Source: Eubacteriales bacterium
GTDB lineage: Bacteria; Bacillota; Clostridia; Oscillospirales; CAG-272
Direction: 5' to 3'
Assembly (NCBI GenBank): GCA_045653105.1
Contig: JAZOLL010000036.1
Span: 507 to 64,506, forward strand
DNA: 64,000 nucleotides
Each line of letters opens with the position of its first letter. Position 1 is the first letter of the stretch. The translations under genes were made by a program, and so were the position numbers. The notes beneath the pieces were generated by a model, which was given only the letters and a program-made list of their open reading frames with translations, was not told the origin of the DNA and ran no database searches. Positions 15,569 through 25,354 of the stretch are shown here, in pieces.

Positions 15569-16204
15569 TTACTGTTCCAAGTGAAAATAACTTATGTTCA
15601 TAGATATATCCTGATAAGATGCATCCGCATCGCTGTGAAAATACAGATAGCAGTCAAGCTCGGACGGTGCATCACCCTCGTCGTTATGCGGTATGATCAG
15701 CTTGTTTGCGCTGTCGTATATATCGAGTCGATATGTAAACTCTCCGTCTTCACCCACAAGCTCCGCCTTATCAAAGCACTTATAGAGCATTTCTCGACCG
15801 TTTGTAGAGGTAAGTCCATCGTTCTTGGGAGTTACTCCTATATACATCATACTGAGAAGTCGCGGGTCAGAGACTGTTATTCCGACTATCGAAAGCCTTA
15901 CCGATATTGCCGAGAGCTCCTCGTCCTGCGACTGGTAGTCAAGCGTTATCTTAAAGGGTATCGTAGCTCCGGGTACGAGCTTTGCGGGGTCGAGTTTGAA
16001 CTCTTTGGCAGGGACGTATTGCTCCCCTTCAACGAAAAGCACCTCTGCGTCTACGCCAACGCTTGAAATAAACATTTTATTGTCGCCTGTGTAGTCAAGC
16101 ATGATATAAGGGGTGCGGACAGACTCACCGCTGAGTATCCACGCGGTAGTCACTGTGCAGCAAAGCAACAGACAATAAAGTATTCTCAAAATGCGCTTTT
16201 TCAT
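15569..16204 (-). CDS. Secreted protein with a variant SipW-type N-terminus (TasA/camelysin-like minor component candidate)
   Basis: Its N-terminus is MKKRILRILYCLLLCCTVTTAWILSGES. LVPGATIPFKITLDY resembles the PG-containing strand of camelysin/TasA-like proteins. The RBS is gagggaggag. Confidence 0.5.
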   Translation of the reverse strand: MKKRILRILYCLLLCCTVTTAWILSGESVRTPYIMLDYTGDNKMFISSVGVDAEVLFVEGEQYVPAKEFKLDPAKLVPGATIPFKITLDYQSQDEELSAISVRLSIVGITVSDPRLLSMMYIGVTPKNDGLTSTNGREMLYKCFDKAELVGEDGEFTYRLDIYDSANKLIIPHNDEGDAPSELDCYLYFHSDADASYQDISMNISYFHLEQ

Positions 16205-16238
16205 CGCACAGCTCCTCCCTCTTTGATTTTTTGCGAGA

Positions 16239-17252
16239 TCAGACTATCATCGCTGAAAACTTAAGCTTCAAATTGAATGCTTTTCCGGATATAATAGACG
16301 AACAGTTTGGATCCTCTCCCTCTGCCCAGATACGAACAGTCAGTGTCTGCTGTTGTCCGTCTTCAAGAGGAAAGAGTGTCTTTGTGGGATCGTTTTGATT
16401 TTCTCCGCCGTTAAAGTCGGCAAAAGTATAAAGTCTACCGCCGTTGTTCTCATAGTTCTGAACGATCGGATAAGATACTCCGTCGTGTATGACCTCACTG
16501 GCGGGGATCAGTACGCCCTCGGGTGTATATCCCGTATATCTGAGAACGCCGTCCATCGCGTATTTTACAGTAGAAGATCCGGGGAGAGCCTGGTTGCTTA
16601 TTCCCTGATGTATCTTGGATGTCGCACCGAGAATATAAGTTGTACCCTGTACAACGTCTCCCGTACCGCTTGAGAGCGTGATGGATATTCGGATCGCGCT
16701 GATAACATCTACGTCTCCGACGTTTTCAATAACCGACGAGGGGTCTATATATACGTAACGAGTGCCTTCGTTTGTATCGTTGTTAGGCGCCTGCACCGTA
16801 AACTGAAGATCGACGTATCCGAACTGTTTTCCAAGCTCGGTATTCAAAAGTGACGCATCGTTGGGCGGGTTTGCTATATCGTTTCTCGAAATGTGATGAA
16901 GCGTTGCATACTCGTTTCCTGATGCCGATACCGACAAGCTGAAGAAGTCTCCGCTTCGTCCTGTAGCATTGGATACTGATTTCAGCTTGAAATCCTGAAC
17001 GCCCAAAAGCTCATCGAGGGTCTTTTCCATCGTAGCCGTTTCATCGAACACGAAGGAAAGCGTATTACCTGTCGCGATCGTGATTCCGCTCTGCTCGATT
17101 CGGGGCGACCAGTCTCGTTTGATCCATGAATAGCTGACATAGGTCAGGAGAACAGCGGTCAGCAGAATCATAGATACAGAATGAGCTATTTTTAACCAGT
17201 TTTTCTTCAAAAACATCTTTTTAAAATTCTCCAACTTTATTCTCCTTTCCAC
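16239..17252 (-). CDS. SipW-dependent-type signal peptide protein, TasA-like paralogue (337 aa)
   Basis: It carries the N-terminal motif TAVLLTYVSYSWIKRD and the C-terminal family motif TVRIWAEGEDPNC...LKLKFSA. The true start is uncertain: the track start is GTG, but an AAAGGAGA RBS inside the first codons favours an internal start at LENFKK or MFLKK. Confidence 0.6.
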   Translation of the reverse strand: MERRIKLENFKKMFLKKNWLKIAHSVSMILLTAVLLTYVSYSWIKRDWSPRIEQSGITIATGNTLSFVFDETATMEKTLDELLGVQDFKLKSVSNATGRSGDFFSLSVSASGNEYATLHHISRNDIANPPNDASLLNTELGKQFGYVDLQFTVQAPNNDTNEGTRYVYIDPSSVIENVGDVDVISAIRISITLSSGTGDVVQGTTYILGATSKIHQGISNQALPGSSTVKYAMDGVLRYTGYTPEGVLIPASEVIHDGVSYPIVQNYENNGGRLYTFADFNGGENQNDPTKTLFPLEDGQQQTLTVRIWAEGEDPNCSSIISGKAFNLKLKFSAMIV

Positions 17253-17262
17253 AATTTTTCTT

Positions 17263-23619: not shown

Positions 23620-23690
23620 TACACCAAACTAATAATTTAAAGTTTCGCCTCGATAAATTTTAGAAAAGTGTTTAAAGTTTTAATGTCGGA

Positions 23691-24500
23691 TTACTGCTGA
23701 ACCTCAGTAGCGTTGAGGGAAAGCTCAACATTGAATCCGGAGCTTGCGTTCTTGTTGATGCACTCTGCATCCTGACCCTCAACCCAAACAACGACCTCTA
23801 TCTTAACGATATTCTCTACGAACTCGCCGCTCTCGTCTACGTCACCGCCTGCAACTGTGAAAGTGCAGTCAGCAGCAGCAGTCTTAAGGGTAGCGGGCTT
23901 TTCAAGATAAGTGGTATCTGTTGCGATTGTAAAGTAATCTGTAGATGTTCCCTTTACTGCCTTGTAGTCCTCATCGCCAAGAATGAATGCGAGTGTCTTG
24001 TTTGCGTCGGTCTCAAGGCTATCATATACGAACACTGCAAGTCTTGCTGCCTCGGAAATATCACGAGCATCGCCCTCAGCATCTGTATCTACAAATCTTG
24101 TTCCGGTAAGGTCAACTGTGATATCATTGTAACCTGTGTTCTTTATGTAAAGAACCTGGCTCCATACGTTGGTGGGCTTATCGTTTTCAACTGTCTTGAA
24201 CTGATCGGGGTTAGCGGGGTTGAACTCTACCTTGAAGAAGTTAGCCGCATTAATAGTAGAAACAGGCTGTACATCATTGATAGTTGCATCTTCAAGTGTA
24301 AGTTCGTTTGCCCAACCACTTGTTGCGTTTGTGGAGATCTGAAGACCACCGTCAGCCGCTACAACGTTCATAGACATACCGGTAACGGTAGCTGTCTTAG
24401 CAGATGTGAACCACGCGTATGTTATGCCTGTCAACGAAAGAACTGCTACAACCAACATACAAATTGTAGAGAGCATAGCTTTTCTCAATGTCTTTGTCAT
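23691..24500 (-). CDS. SipW-dependent-type signal peptide protein, TasA/camelysin-like (269 aa); candidate major subunit
   Basis: The N-terminus MTKTLRKAMLSTICMLVVAVLSLTGITYAWFTSAKTATVTGMSMNV is the closest match to the GTxAxFTD layout of TasA/CalY. The C-terminal motif is VVVWVEGQDAEC...VELSLNA. It has a strong RBS (AAGGAGA), its own upstream AT-rich gap and a downstream hairpin. Confidence 0.65.
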   Translation of the reverse strand: MTKTLRKAMLSTICMLVVAVLSLTGITYAWFTSAKTATVTGMSMNVVAADGGLQISTNATSGWANELTLEDATINDVQPVSTINAANFFKVEFNPANPDQFKTVENDKPTNVWSQVLYIKNTGYNDITVDLTGTRFVDTDAEGDARDISEAARLAVFVYDSLETDANKTLAFILGDEDYKAVKGTSTDYFTIATDTTYLEKPATLKTAAADCTFTVAGGDVDESGEFVENIVKIEVVVWVEGQDAECINKNASSGFNVELSLNATEVQQ

Positions 24501-24631
24501 TTTTCTTTTCTCCTTAATTAAATTTTTAATTAAATTTTTTCAAATTTATAATACATACTTGTCATTTTTTGTTGGGGCGCGATTTCAAACCGATCTAAGC
24601 TGCTTTAACGGCTTGATTGACACAAGAGGAG

Positions 24632-25354
24632 TTATCGTTCCTGTGTCGAATCCGCAGAAAACGTCATCGACATTTTAACTCGTCCTCCTCTAATGTTATC
24701 GAGGCATTCGGGATCATCGCCCTCCAACCATATGACAAGTGTATATTTAATTATTTCGTCCGTTTTGAAATTCTCATTGAGACTTACAAATACGGTCGTT
24801 TCGTCTGCAAACGGAACTGTGTCAAGCTCCGGCTGACCGTTTGCGCCCATCTTGGCGTAGGTGGTCATCTCCCCGTTTTTATAAAGCCGAACTCTTATGG
24901 CTTCATCTACTCCCTTTACCGAGCTCTCGATAACAAAGCGTTCCTCAACATCGCACTTCTTATCTCCGGTGTTTTTAAGGTAAAAGGTGTAGGCTATGTA
25001 ATGCTCTCCGTTATGAGAGCCGTCTATCTCGTCGAGATCGTCAGGCAACCAGTGTACCGAAATATTTGTCATATTGTCGATGCCGTCAGCTCCGAGCATA
25101 GTAACGGGCCGGCTAAAGTCCGCCGTTTCGGAAAGCGAGATCGCCACCTCGTCTTCATTCCCTCTCGAGCCCGGGAGGATTCCGACCGTGAACATACCCT
25201 CTTCCCTGAAGAGCATCGCAGCTCCGTAGAAAGCAGTCAGCATTGCAACAGATACGCAAATAACTATCTTGGCAATTTTAAACCACTGAGCGGTTTTCGC
25301 GCCTATCTTTATGACGTCGTAGAGTCCCTCGAAGAAAAGCAAAAACTTTTTCAT
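24632..25354 (-). CDS. Membrane-anchored paralogue of the TasA-like family (240 aa) lacking the Y-A-W-F motif
   Basis: A single N-terminal TM segment (IAKIVICVSVAMLTAFYGAAMLF). The shared core reads YIAYTFYLKNTGDKKCDVE. The C-terminal motif is TLVIWLEGDDPEC...VKMSMTFSA. Its ATG overlaps the upstream stop (ATGA at 25351-25354). Confidence 0.55.
   Translation of the reverse strand: MKKFLLFFEGLYDVIKIGAKTAQWFKIAKIVICVSVAMLTAFYGAAMLFREEGMFTVGILPGSRGNEDEVAISLSETADFSRPVTMLGADGIDNMTNISVHWLPDDLDEIDGSHNGEHYIAYTFYLKNTGDKKCDVEERFVIESSVKGVDEAIRVRLYKNGEMTTYAKMGANGQPELDTVPFADETTVFVSLNENFKTDEIIKYTLVIWLEGDDPECLDNIRGGRVKMSMTFSADSTQER

Follow-up and report, generated by a model that had tools for sequence, protein, structure and literature searches.

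We analysed a stretch of 64,000 nucleotides, hereafter the window, from the genome of an Eubacteriales bacterium (Clostridia, Oscillospirales, CAG-272; assembly GCA_045653105.1, contig JAZOLL010000036.1, positions 507 to 64,506 of the forward strand). A single minus-strand operon of about 18 kb (window 27417-9331) holds all members of a family of paralogous proteins, here called p240, p269, p300, p409 and p337 after their lengths in amino acids (aa). The same operon encodes two archaeal-type signal peptidases (SipW1 and SipW2), a McrB-family GTPase with an McrC-like partner, a protein of 211 aa (p211) and a giant leucine-rich repeat (LRR) surface protein. An earlier note on this DNA had read the paralogues as the major, minor and anchor-like members of a heteropolymeric fibre, and all the open reading frames that it quoted are present on the minus strand, with their coordinates and lengths unchanged. 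The operon and its features are as follows; C-block denotes the C-terminal block of the paralogues, and an arrow within a leader marks the predicted cleavage position.

26779..27417, minus strand: TetR-like regulator of 212 aa, with a weak Pfam TetR_N match (E 0.0054)
25351..26757, minus strand: protein of 468 aa with HD-GYP-like and EAL-like domains (Pfam HD, HD_5 and EAL; EAL E 1e-23)
24632..25354, minus strand: p240, the most conserved paralogue, C-block WLEGDDPEC, candidate basal or anchor subunit
23691..24500, minus strand: p269, leader ending SLTGITYA↓WF, C-block WVEGQDAEC, candidate major subunit
23593..23619, minus strand: stem-loop with a 12-bp GC stem, directly 3' of the p269 gene (fold z-score -3.66 for the intergenic region)
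22799..23521, minus strand: SipW1, 240 aa, archaeal/endoplasmic reticulum-type signal peptidase I (TIGR02228, NF046067)
21231..22784, minus strand: McrB-family GTPase of 517 aa, with two N-terminal hydrophobic segments and a coiled-coil linker
19364..21187, minus strand: McrC-like protein of 607 aa, with a DUF2357 N-terminal region, an (EEARLA)n helix, a proline-rich stretch and a basic tail
19668..19922, no strand assigned: tandem repeat of 18 bp in 14.2 copies, encoding (EEARLA)n (Tandem Repeats Finder, 86% matches)
18502..19404, minus strand: p300, minor paralogue, leader AVSYS↓WF, C-block WVDGLDRDC (hhalign 99.3-99.8% to p269 and p409)
17263..18492, minus strand: p409, minor paralogue with a C-terminal extension of about 80 aa, leader SVSFS↓WF, C-block WIEGTDREA (without Cys)
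16239..17252, minus strand: p337, minor paralogue, leader YVSYS↓WI, C-block WAEGEDPNC
15569..16204, minus strand: p211, leader-only protein, leader TVTTA↓WI, no C-block
15005..15559, minus strand: SipW2, 184 aa, second archaeal-type signal peptidase I (TIGR02228)
9331..15024, minus strand: giant BspA-type LRR surface protein of 1897 aa, leader ALSYA↓WF (Pfam LRR_5, E 5e-35), candidate tip adhesin
9276..9303, no strand assigned: bidirectional intrinsic terminator at the operon end (12-bp stem with 8 GC pairs, then a T-run)

Two gene starts deserve mention: p300 can alternatively be read as 323 aa from an upstream ATG, and the probable start of the GTPase is the ATG at 22766. A search of the window against Rfam returned no RNA family.

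Starting from p269, we collected 26 species-level genome loci and four metagenome loci (cited by L numbers), all of them from uncultured Clostridia that live in the gut of sheep, goat, yak or human. The complete order is preserved in about 17 loci and reads p240, p269, SipW1, GTPase, DUF2357 (McrC-like) protein, p300, p409, p337, p211, SipW2 and giant, while p269 itself is only 25-45% identical among them. p211 occupies the same position in 15 loci, and related loci have giants of 1900-3600 aa in the position corresponding to that of the LRR protein. A distant Coprococcus/Lachnospiraceae clade is arranged differently. In three of the five loci examined there (L028, L030 and L022), SipW1, GTPase, DUF2357 protein and SipW2 follow four paralogues, and upstream of these L028 and L030 also have a giant of about 3000 aa; in L027 and L031 further genes are interspersed with the paralogues. 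No related locus with enough flanking sequence lacks SipW1, the GTPase, the DUF2357 protein or SipW2, and their order holds in both clades. One locus, L023 (CAVCCL010000168.1), is filed as Bifidobacterium catenulatum and is near-identical to the Coprococcus loci of metagenome-assembled genomes (MAGs); it is most likely a binning error rather than a member of the Actinomycetota carrying the system.

Pairwise BLAST among the proteins of the window detected marginal similarity only. We therefore rely for homology on orthologues of each gene collected from the related loci and compared profile against profile with hhalign. By this comparison p240, p269, p300, p409 and p337 are homologous, most pairs reaching a probability of 97-99.8% over 150-285 columns; the match between p240 and p300 is limited to 63 columns, and that between p240 and p409 to the C-block (probability 68%). 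p211 and the first 300 aa of the giant have the leader region alone in common with the paralogues (25-50 aligned columns). When the first 250 aa of the giant were forced into a global alignment with the family, the probability rose to 81-95%, with the score coming from the leader. Because p211 and the giant match the paralogues over the leader only, the homologous family proper comprises, on profile comparison, five members and not six or seven. The family postulated in the earlier note is thus real, and its six-member N-terminal alignment holds in part: the box at its centre is present in six genes, and two of these, p211 and the giant, match the others over the leader only.

Two motifs characterize the family. 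We searched the six-frame translation of the window for the C-block pattern W-x-[ED]-G-x-D-x-x-[CA] and for the N-terminal box pattern [ST][YFT][AS]W[FI], taking the chance expectation from codon-shuffled windows. The C-block occurs five times, always in the genes named above, against a mean of 0.03 and a maximum of one per shuffled window, which bears out the claim that five proteins have this block in common. The N-terminal box occurs six times in the operon and once as a stray elsewhere in the window, against 0.37 expected. Both motifs are real and under selection, because they form the top conserved 12-residue windows in every orthologue set. They are also retained in the distant Coprococcus/Lachnospiraceae clade, as ATYAWF and (I/Y)WLEGCDxxC.

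The family is large. A profile of the paralogues, searched as the earlier note had proposed against 1.84 billion protein clusters at 50% identity, recovered 8113 representatives at E<=1e-3 and 4014 at E<=1e-10, a family for which no curated model exists; the p240 family alone accounts for 1544 clusters at 90% identity. Almost all members are metagenomic and unnamed, and the few named ones are listed as "hypothetical protein" in MAGs of Ruminococcaceae, Oscillospiraceae or Clostridia. A profile made from our alignments would annotate thousands of such "hypothetical" proteins.

The N-terminal box lies at the end of the leader. Each protein has a single N-terminal hydrophobic segment and none elsewhere, and all six proteins with the box have small residues at positions -3 and -1 ([ST]-x-[AS]), followed by W-[FI] at P1'/P2'. 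This arrangement parallels TasA, whose sequence we checked against PDB 8aur: the mature protein starts at A28 and the cleavage site reads T-W-A↓A-F. In the TasA fibre, residues 28-38, with the N-terminus made by SipW, are the donor strand, and F29 is a key contact (PMC9674648). The model of SipW-dependent signal peptides, TIGR04088, gave p269 15.5 bits against a cutoff of 19, and 11 of 30 p269 orthologues match it with weak scores (best E 2.3e-4). The box is therefore best read, from its residues, as a SipW-type (type I) signal-peptidase site plus the first mature residues, a better description than the signal-anchor motif of the earlier note. The same note had linked the proteins to SipW, and this link finds support in the two peptidases of the window, both of which exceed the TIGR02228 cutoff of 51.85 (76.3 bits for SipW1, which also matches the SipW model NF046067 at E 1e-29, and 73 bits for SipW2).

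The leader of p269 stands apart from the others. Its residues 1-31 (window 24408-24500) are about 90% identical among orthologues whose full-length proteins are 30-45% identical. Near-invariance thus extends over the whole leader, beyond the cleavage box, a degree of conservation that the leaders of the minor paralogues do not approach. Synonymous sites in the p269 leader vary freely (47% identical codons), so that selection acts on the peptide; for the same reason we rejected constraint at the RNA level and recent recombination as causes of the conservation.

In the structural models described below, the C-block takes in the end of the penultimate strand together with the acidic turn and short helix that precede the last one. 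Its role is probably that of an interface in assembly. More speculatively, and by analogy with AbpX and cannulae, the block could be a strand-docking or Ca2+ site. We considered three covalent functions and rejected each of them: a universal disulfide, since p337 has a single Cys and p409 none in the block; a Cys-Gln thioester, since the Gln is conserved only among p269 orthologues; and an isopeptide lock of the BsaA type, since no Lys is invariant across the p269 family. The cysteines themselves vary. In the p269 orthologues P0009, P0011 and P0012 the Cys of the block is replaced by Ala and the second Cys, in the motif D-C-x-I-T-L-P, is also missing (residues 212 and 247 of p269 are the positions concerned in alignment A2), while many other p269 orthologues keep the Cys of the block without its D-C-x-I-T-L-P partner. 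In the Coprococcus clade the block reads E-G-C-D-x-x-C, with two Cys four residues apart.

The organization of the p269 gene looks like that of a major subunit, as the earlier note had it. No other gene of the cluster is set off by sizeable spacers, and p269 is preceded by an AT-rich region of its own and a strong Shine-Dalgarno sequence. The hairpin downstream of it has a perfect 12-bp GC stem and no T-run. At least 12 of 16 related loci (among them L001, L003, L006, L009, L010, L012-L015, L017 and L019) have a hairpin of 10-14 bp in this position, with differing sequences, which suggests an attenuator or an mRNA stabilizer that raises the level of the major subunit. Spacers, upstream region with its strong ribosome-binding site and recurrent hairpin all fit p269 as the shaft subunit. 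Just upstream of the ribosome-binding site lies a 12-bp AT-rich direct repeat, TTAATTAAATTT, in 2.2 copies (window 24514-24539), which may be an operator.

The 240-aa protein had been described as having lost the box. The canonical box is indeed absent, but simple loss is the wrong description. p240 has one hydrophobic segment (residues 24-50), with Q-W-F on its N-terminal side and a conserved F-Y-G-A-A-x-L-F at its end. The latter also fits the -3/-1 rule, and Y-G-A-A-x-L-F could, as far as the motif goes, be a variant cleavage site; p240 may thus be processed as well as, in the proposal of the earlier note, remain anchored in the membrane.

The two signal peptidases differ from each other. 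In SipW1, hydrophobic segments flank the catalytic domain at both ends, and the second membrane segment is followed by an acidic tail of about 55 residues, rich in charged ones (window 22799-22970), against a tail of about 12 residues in SipW2. The two proteins are 29% identical and both are kept in both clades, which suggests that they have different substrates or partners. We found no LPXTG-like motif in the C-terminal 60 residues of any component, no C-terminal hydrophobic anchor in any component, including the giant, and no sortase among the operon genes in Pfam and NCBIfam scans.

At the 5' end of the operon, the stop codon of the HD-GYP/EAL-like gene overlaps the start codon of p240 (ATGA), which points to control by cyclic di-GMP (c-di-GMP). 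The gene lies at the same position in L001, L003 and L005, where a gene of about 205 aa also occupies the place of the TetR-like regulator. On direct reading, the HD-GYP-like domain has HHESPDGCGFP and the EAL-like domain has E-F-I at the position of the EAL motif; the protein could be a phosphodiesterase with a degenerate sensor domain.

The earlier note overlooked the McrB-like GTPase and its DUF2357 partner. No other part of the locus is as well conserved or as distinctive. The GTPase has a Walker A motif GISGTGKTS, a Walker B motif LDEMN and an invariant GTANNDDST that aligns with MNTADRS of Escherichia coli McrB, whose structure (PDB 6hz4) it matches at E 1.2e-5. It is the best-conserved gene of all, at 76-91% identity within the clade of the window and 43-47% between clades. 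Its hydrophobic segments, at about residues 21-46 and 48-92, are followed by KRRIR and a conserved heptad-like stretch, so that by the positive-inside rule the GTPase domain would be cytoplasmic. A Pfam scan of the protein gave no DivIC/FtsB match at E<0.1, and FtsB homology itself was addressed by no other search.

In the partner, all 15 of the 15 orthologues score above the Pfam cutoff for DUF2357, the sole domain recognized. DUF2357 is the N-terminal domain by which McrC activates McrB (PMC11090510). We detected no nuclease domain in the McrC-like protein with Pfam, which reported DUF2357 alone, and comparison of its profile with the PDB found nothing. The orthologues measure 532-949 aa, and their alignment shows a helical repeat region of variable length; the number of (EEARLA)n units may vary in frame and set the length of a stalk or ruler.

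This combination of genes places the locus among the CoCoPALM systems, named in three sentences by Bell et al. (eLife 2024; PMC11090510), who deferred their analysis. As in CoCoPALM, the GTPase bears the NxD signature (N-N-D and a second D), the McrC homologue combines DUF2357 with a coiled coil, and signal-peptidase genes adjoin the pair. The hydrophobic segments and heptad-like stretch of the GTPase may correspond to the FtsB-like transmembrane and coiled-coil region to which the CoCoPALM GTPase is fused. We found no later literature that uses the name, and the supplementary files of Bell et al. that we examined hold nothing on CoCoPALM. The paralogue family, its two motifs, the pair of distinct SipW genes, the LRR giant and the HD-GYP/EAL gene are absent from the account of Bell et al. 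and are added here, while the obligatory McrBC-derived GTPase has been noted before and never explained.

To compare folds, we built an AlphaFold2 model of p269 from a 30-sequence alignment and searched it with Foldseek against 350,542 PDB chains. The model (predicted local distance difference test, pLDDT, 81.6; predicted template modelling score 0.80) is all-beta after the leader. Its best match is the TasA fibre (8aur_A, E 6.4e-4, probability 0.99), and lower in the list stand other donor-strand filaments (7pnb, 7ueg and 4y2l; among these filaments are the Sulfolobus thread, AbpA and CfaB). The model of p240 (pLDDT 81.3) has a helix at residues 2-50 and then a beta sandwich, with matches to a PA14-like domain, to the pilin domains PapG and PapA and to other beta sandwiches. 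For p269 and p240 alike, the first strand and the C-block are modelled with less confidence than the core; at the C-block pLDDT falls to 60-65 (residues 241-250 of p269 and 211-220 of p240), between strands above 90. Elements that take on order only upon assembly would give such values, which are not evidence for a complex. The TasA-like fold expected by the earlier note is thus weakly upheld for p269 and not for p240, and its remark that the C-terminal block is not known from TasA proved right, W-x-E-G-x-D-x-x-C being absent there.

Taken together, we lean slightly towards a heteropolymeric fibre whose subunits are joined by donor-strand exchange, which bears the LRR protein as adhesin at its tip and is under c-di-GMP control. 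A logic of major, minor and tip or base subunits, as the earlier note proposed, is a reasonable reading of the gene set and has precedents in the TasA superfamily. The subunits would be exported by the Sec pathway and stay tethered through their leaders until one of the two SipW peptidases, probably, cuts after [ST]-[YF]-[AS] and before W-F. The mature protein would then begin with W-F and continue as an alternating hydrophobic strand, as in ATVTGMSMNVVA. If the subunits behave like those of TasA, AbpA/AbpX and Tafi, this freed strand would insert into the sheet of a neighbour and the fibre would grow at the membrane. We infer p269 to be the abundant shaft subunit and p300, p409 and p337 to be minor or adaptor subunits. 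The giant and p211, which have leader and strand but no anchor of their own, would cap or nucleate the fibre, the giant as its tip adhesin, while p240 with its divergent leader would terminate the fibre or form its base next to the membrane. The machine includes the McrB-like GTPase and its nuclease-less McrC-like partner; they might offer a platform for peptidases and subunits, supply energy for assembly or couple it to a cytoplasmic signal.

Several results weigh against this reading. None of the five paralogues matches a Pfam or NCBIfam model. The TM-scores of the fold match between p269 and TasA are low (0.32-0.36). The model of p240, run to replicate that match, did not return TasA among its matches, the top ones being generic beta sandwiches. 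None of 44 sampled family members matches Peptidase_M73, the profiles A2 and A7 found nothing among PDB sequences, and hhalign of A2 against the TasA sequence gave a probability of 0.9%, which is not significant. By sequence, then, the paralogues fall outside the TasA/camelysin family (Pfam Peptidase_M73), and the models leave a distant structural relation to TasA possible. The GTPase lies in a branch that is otherwise predicted to act in defence (PADLOC; PMC11090510). Finally, the invariable presence of the GTPase pair makes the TasA analogy incomplete, because known TasA-type fibres need no nucleoside triphosphatase (NTPase); the works on TasA, BsaA, AbpX and Tafi mention none (PMC9674648, PMC11580942).

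Such a pair would find its place in a third type of Gram-positive pilus machine, in which the two SipW peptidases release donor-strand subunits singly from leaders embedded in the membrane, a hexameric membrane GTPase derived from McrBC organizes or powers the process and the McrC-like protein, with its variable (EEARLA)n helix, forms a cytoplasmic stalk or ruler, a proposal that we hold only tentatively. The difficulties with TasA speak instead for secreted or surface proteins that SipW processes but that form no polymer by strand exchange; they might, for instance, make up a scaffold or coat on the cell that presents the LRR giant through ordinary protein contacts. In favour of this, the fold evidence is weak and absent for p240, no sequence link leads to any filament family, and beta-sandwich domains are common in non-polymeric surface proteins. 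We consider this alternative unlikely. Conservation peaks at the mature N-terminus and in the last two strands, as expected of contacts between subunits and unusual for a monomeric binding domain; the giant is without an anchor of its own; and the set of one major-like, several minor and one leader-only gene mirrors known fibre operons.

The two remaining alternatives start from the GTPase. It falls within the NxD branch of McrB, has predicted restriction systems as its relatives and matches the PADLOC model PDC-M26A (candidate defence) at E 3e-35. The locus might then be mainly a conflict or defence system related to CoCoNuT, with the GTPase as effector or switch; against phages or competitors, the paralogues and the giant would serve as sensors in the envelope, as decoys or to mask receptors, and the fast divergence of the exposed subunits next to cytoplasmic parts that are 76-91% identical would suit it. 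But no nuclease or effector domain was detected in the McrC-like protein or its neighbours, and the GTPase is the only gene that matches PADLOC. The L005 locus lies among housekeeping genes, the system is conserved across two clades of Clostridia rather than patchy, and a c-di-GMP-type regulator with an LRR adhesin fits adhesion, all of which makes defence improbable. We give even less credence to an assembly resembling that of type IV pili, in which subunits would retain their hydrophobic N-terminus and the membrane GTPase would extract them from the bilayer. With SipW peptidases of its own and a canonical (-3, -1) site, the system looks made to cut the leader off; conservation is much lower in the leaders of the minor paralogues, and there is no prepilin peptidase, G↓F-x-x-x-E motif or polytopic platform protein, even if selection on the p269 leader peptide and the constant presence of an NTPase with membrane segments are what such a mechanism would predict.

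If the donor-strand fibre is real, the paralogue family would be the material of adhesive fibres of uncultured gut Clostridia (Oscillospiraceae-like, Coprococcus and Lachnospiraceae) in ruminants and humans, and CoCoPALM would gain probable subunits, a cleavage motif, an assembly motif and a subunit order. It would also raise the question of why an extracellular fibre that depends on Sec and SipW needs a cytoplasmic, restriction-derived GTPase. Should the pilus machine apply, it would be the first donor-strand fibre that depends on nucleoside triphosphates and the first job of an McrBC module outside defence. Automated defence finders may flag fibre loci as defence candidates through PDC-M26A.

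Compared with known systems, the locus combines parts that are otherwise found apart. With McrBC and CoCoNuT type IV restriction it has in common the McrB-family GTPase domain and the DUF2357 activator domain of McrC; here, however, hydrophobic membrane segments replace the DNA-binding N-terminal domain, no PD-(D/E)xK or HEPN nuclease is detectable, and the genes stand in a setting of secretion and adhesion, not of restriction-modification. The parts list of major shaft, minor subunits, tip adhesin and terminating basal subunit is also that of chaperone-usher and sortase pili, which differ by their chaperone, usher, sortase or LPXTG motif, none of which is present in this locus of Gram-positive-type Clostridia.

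The archaeal filaments of the TasA superfamily (AbpA, AbpX, the Saci_0406 thread and Tafi) are separate sequence families, none has been reported with an AAA+ GTPase, and the haloarchaeal Tafi uses the Tat pathway. They resemble the proposed fibre as chaperone-free donor-strand filaments that are often adjacent to a signal peptidase and, in bacterial loci, lie near c-di-GMP genes. In AbpX the donor strand opens with a conserved aromatic residue and the interface contains Ca2+, and Tafi combines several subunit types with a predicted tip adhesin and a membrane anchor.

Closer in organization are two bacterial operons. The SipW-BsaA-BsaB-BsaC operon of Clostridium perfringens (PMC11580942) is likewise clostridial and encodes SipW, TasA-like paralogues and a large accessory protein; its authors suggested that paralogues could form strand-exchange heteropolymers. 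That operon differs in the isopeptide lock of BsaA (N/D-K triad), in the need of BsaC secretion for type IV pilus genes and in the lack of an McrBC-like pair. TasA-TapA-SipW of Bacillus subtilis (8aur; PMC9674648) shares a dedicated archaeal-type signal peptidase, small -3/-1 residues with an aromatic P2', a beta-sandwich subunit and a mature N-terminus that is the donor strand there and a candidate donor strand here. In both, an accessory protein shares only the N-terminal strand with the subunits, TapA in one case and p211 and the giant in the other. A further difference is the number of parts: one subunit and TapA in B. subtilis, five paralogues and a giant adhesin here.

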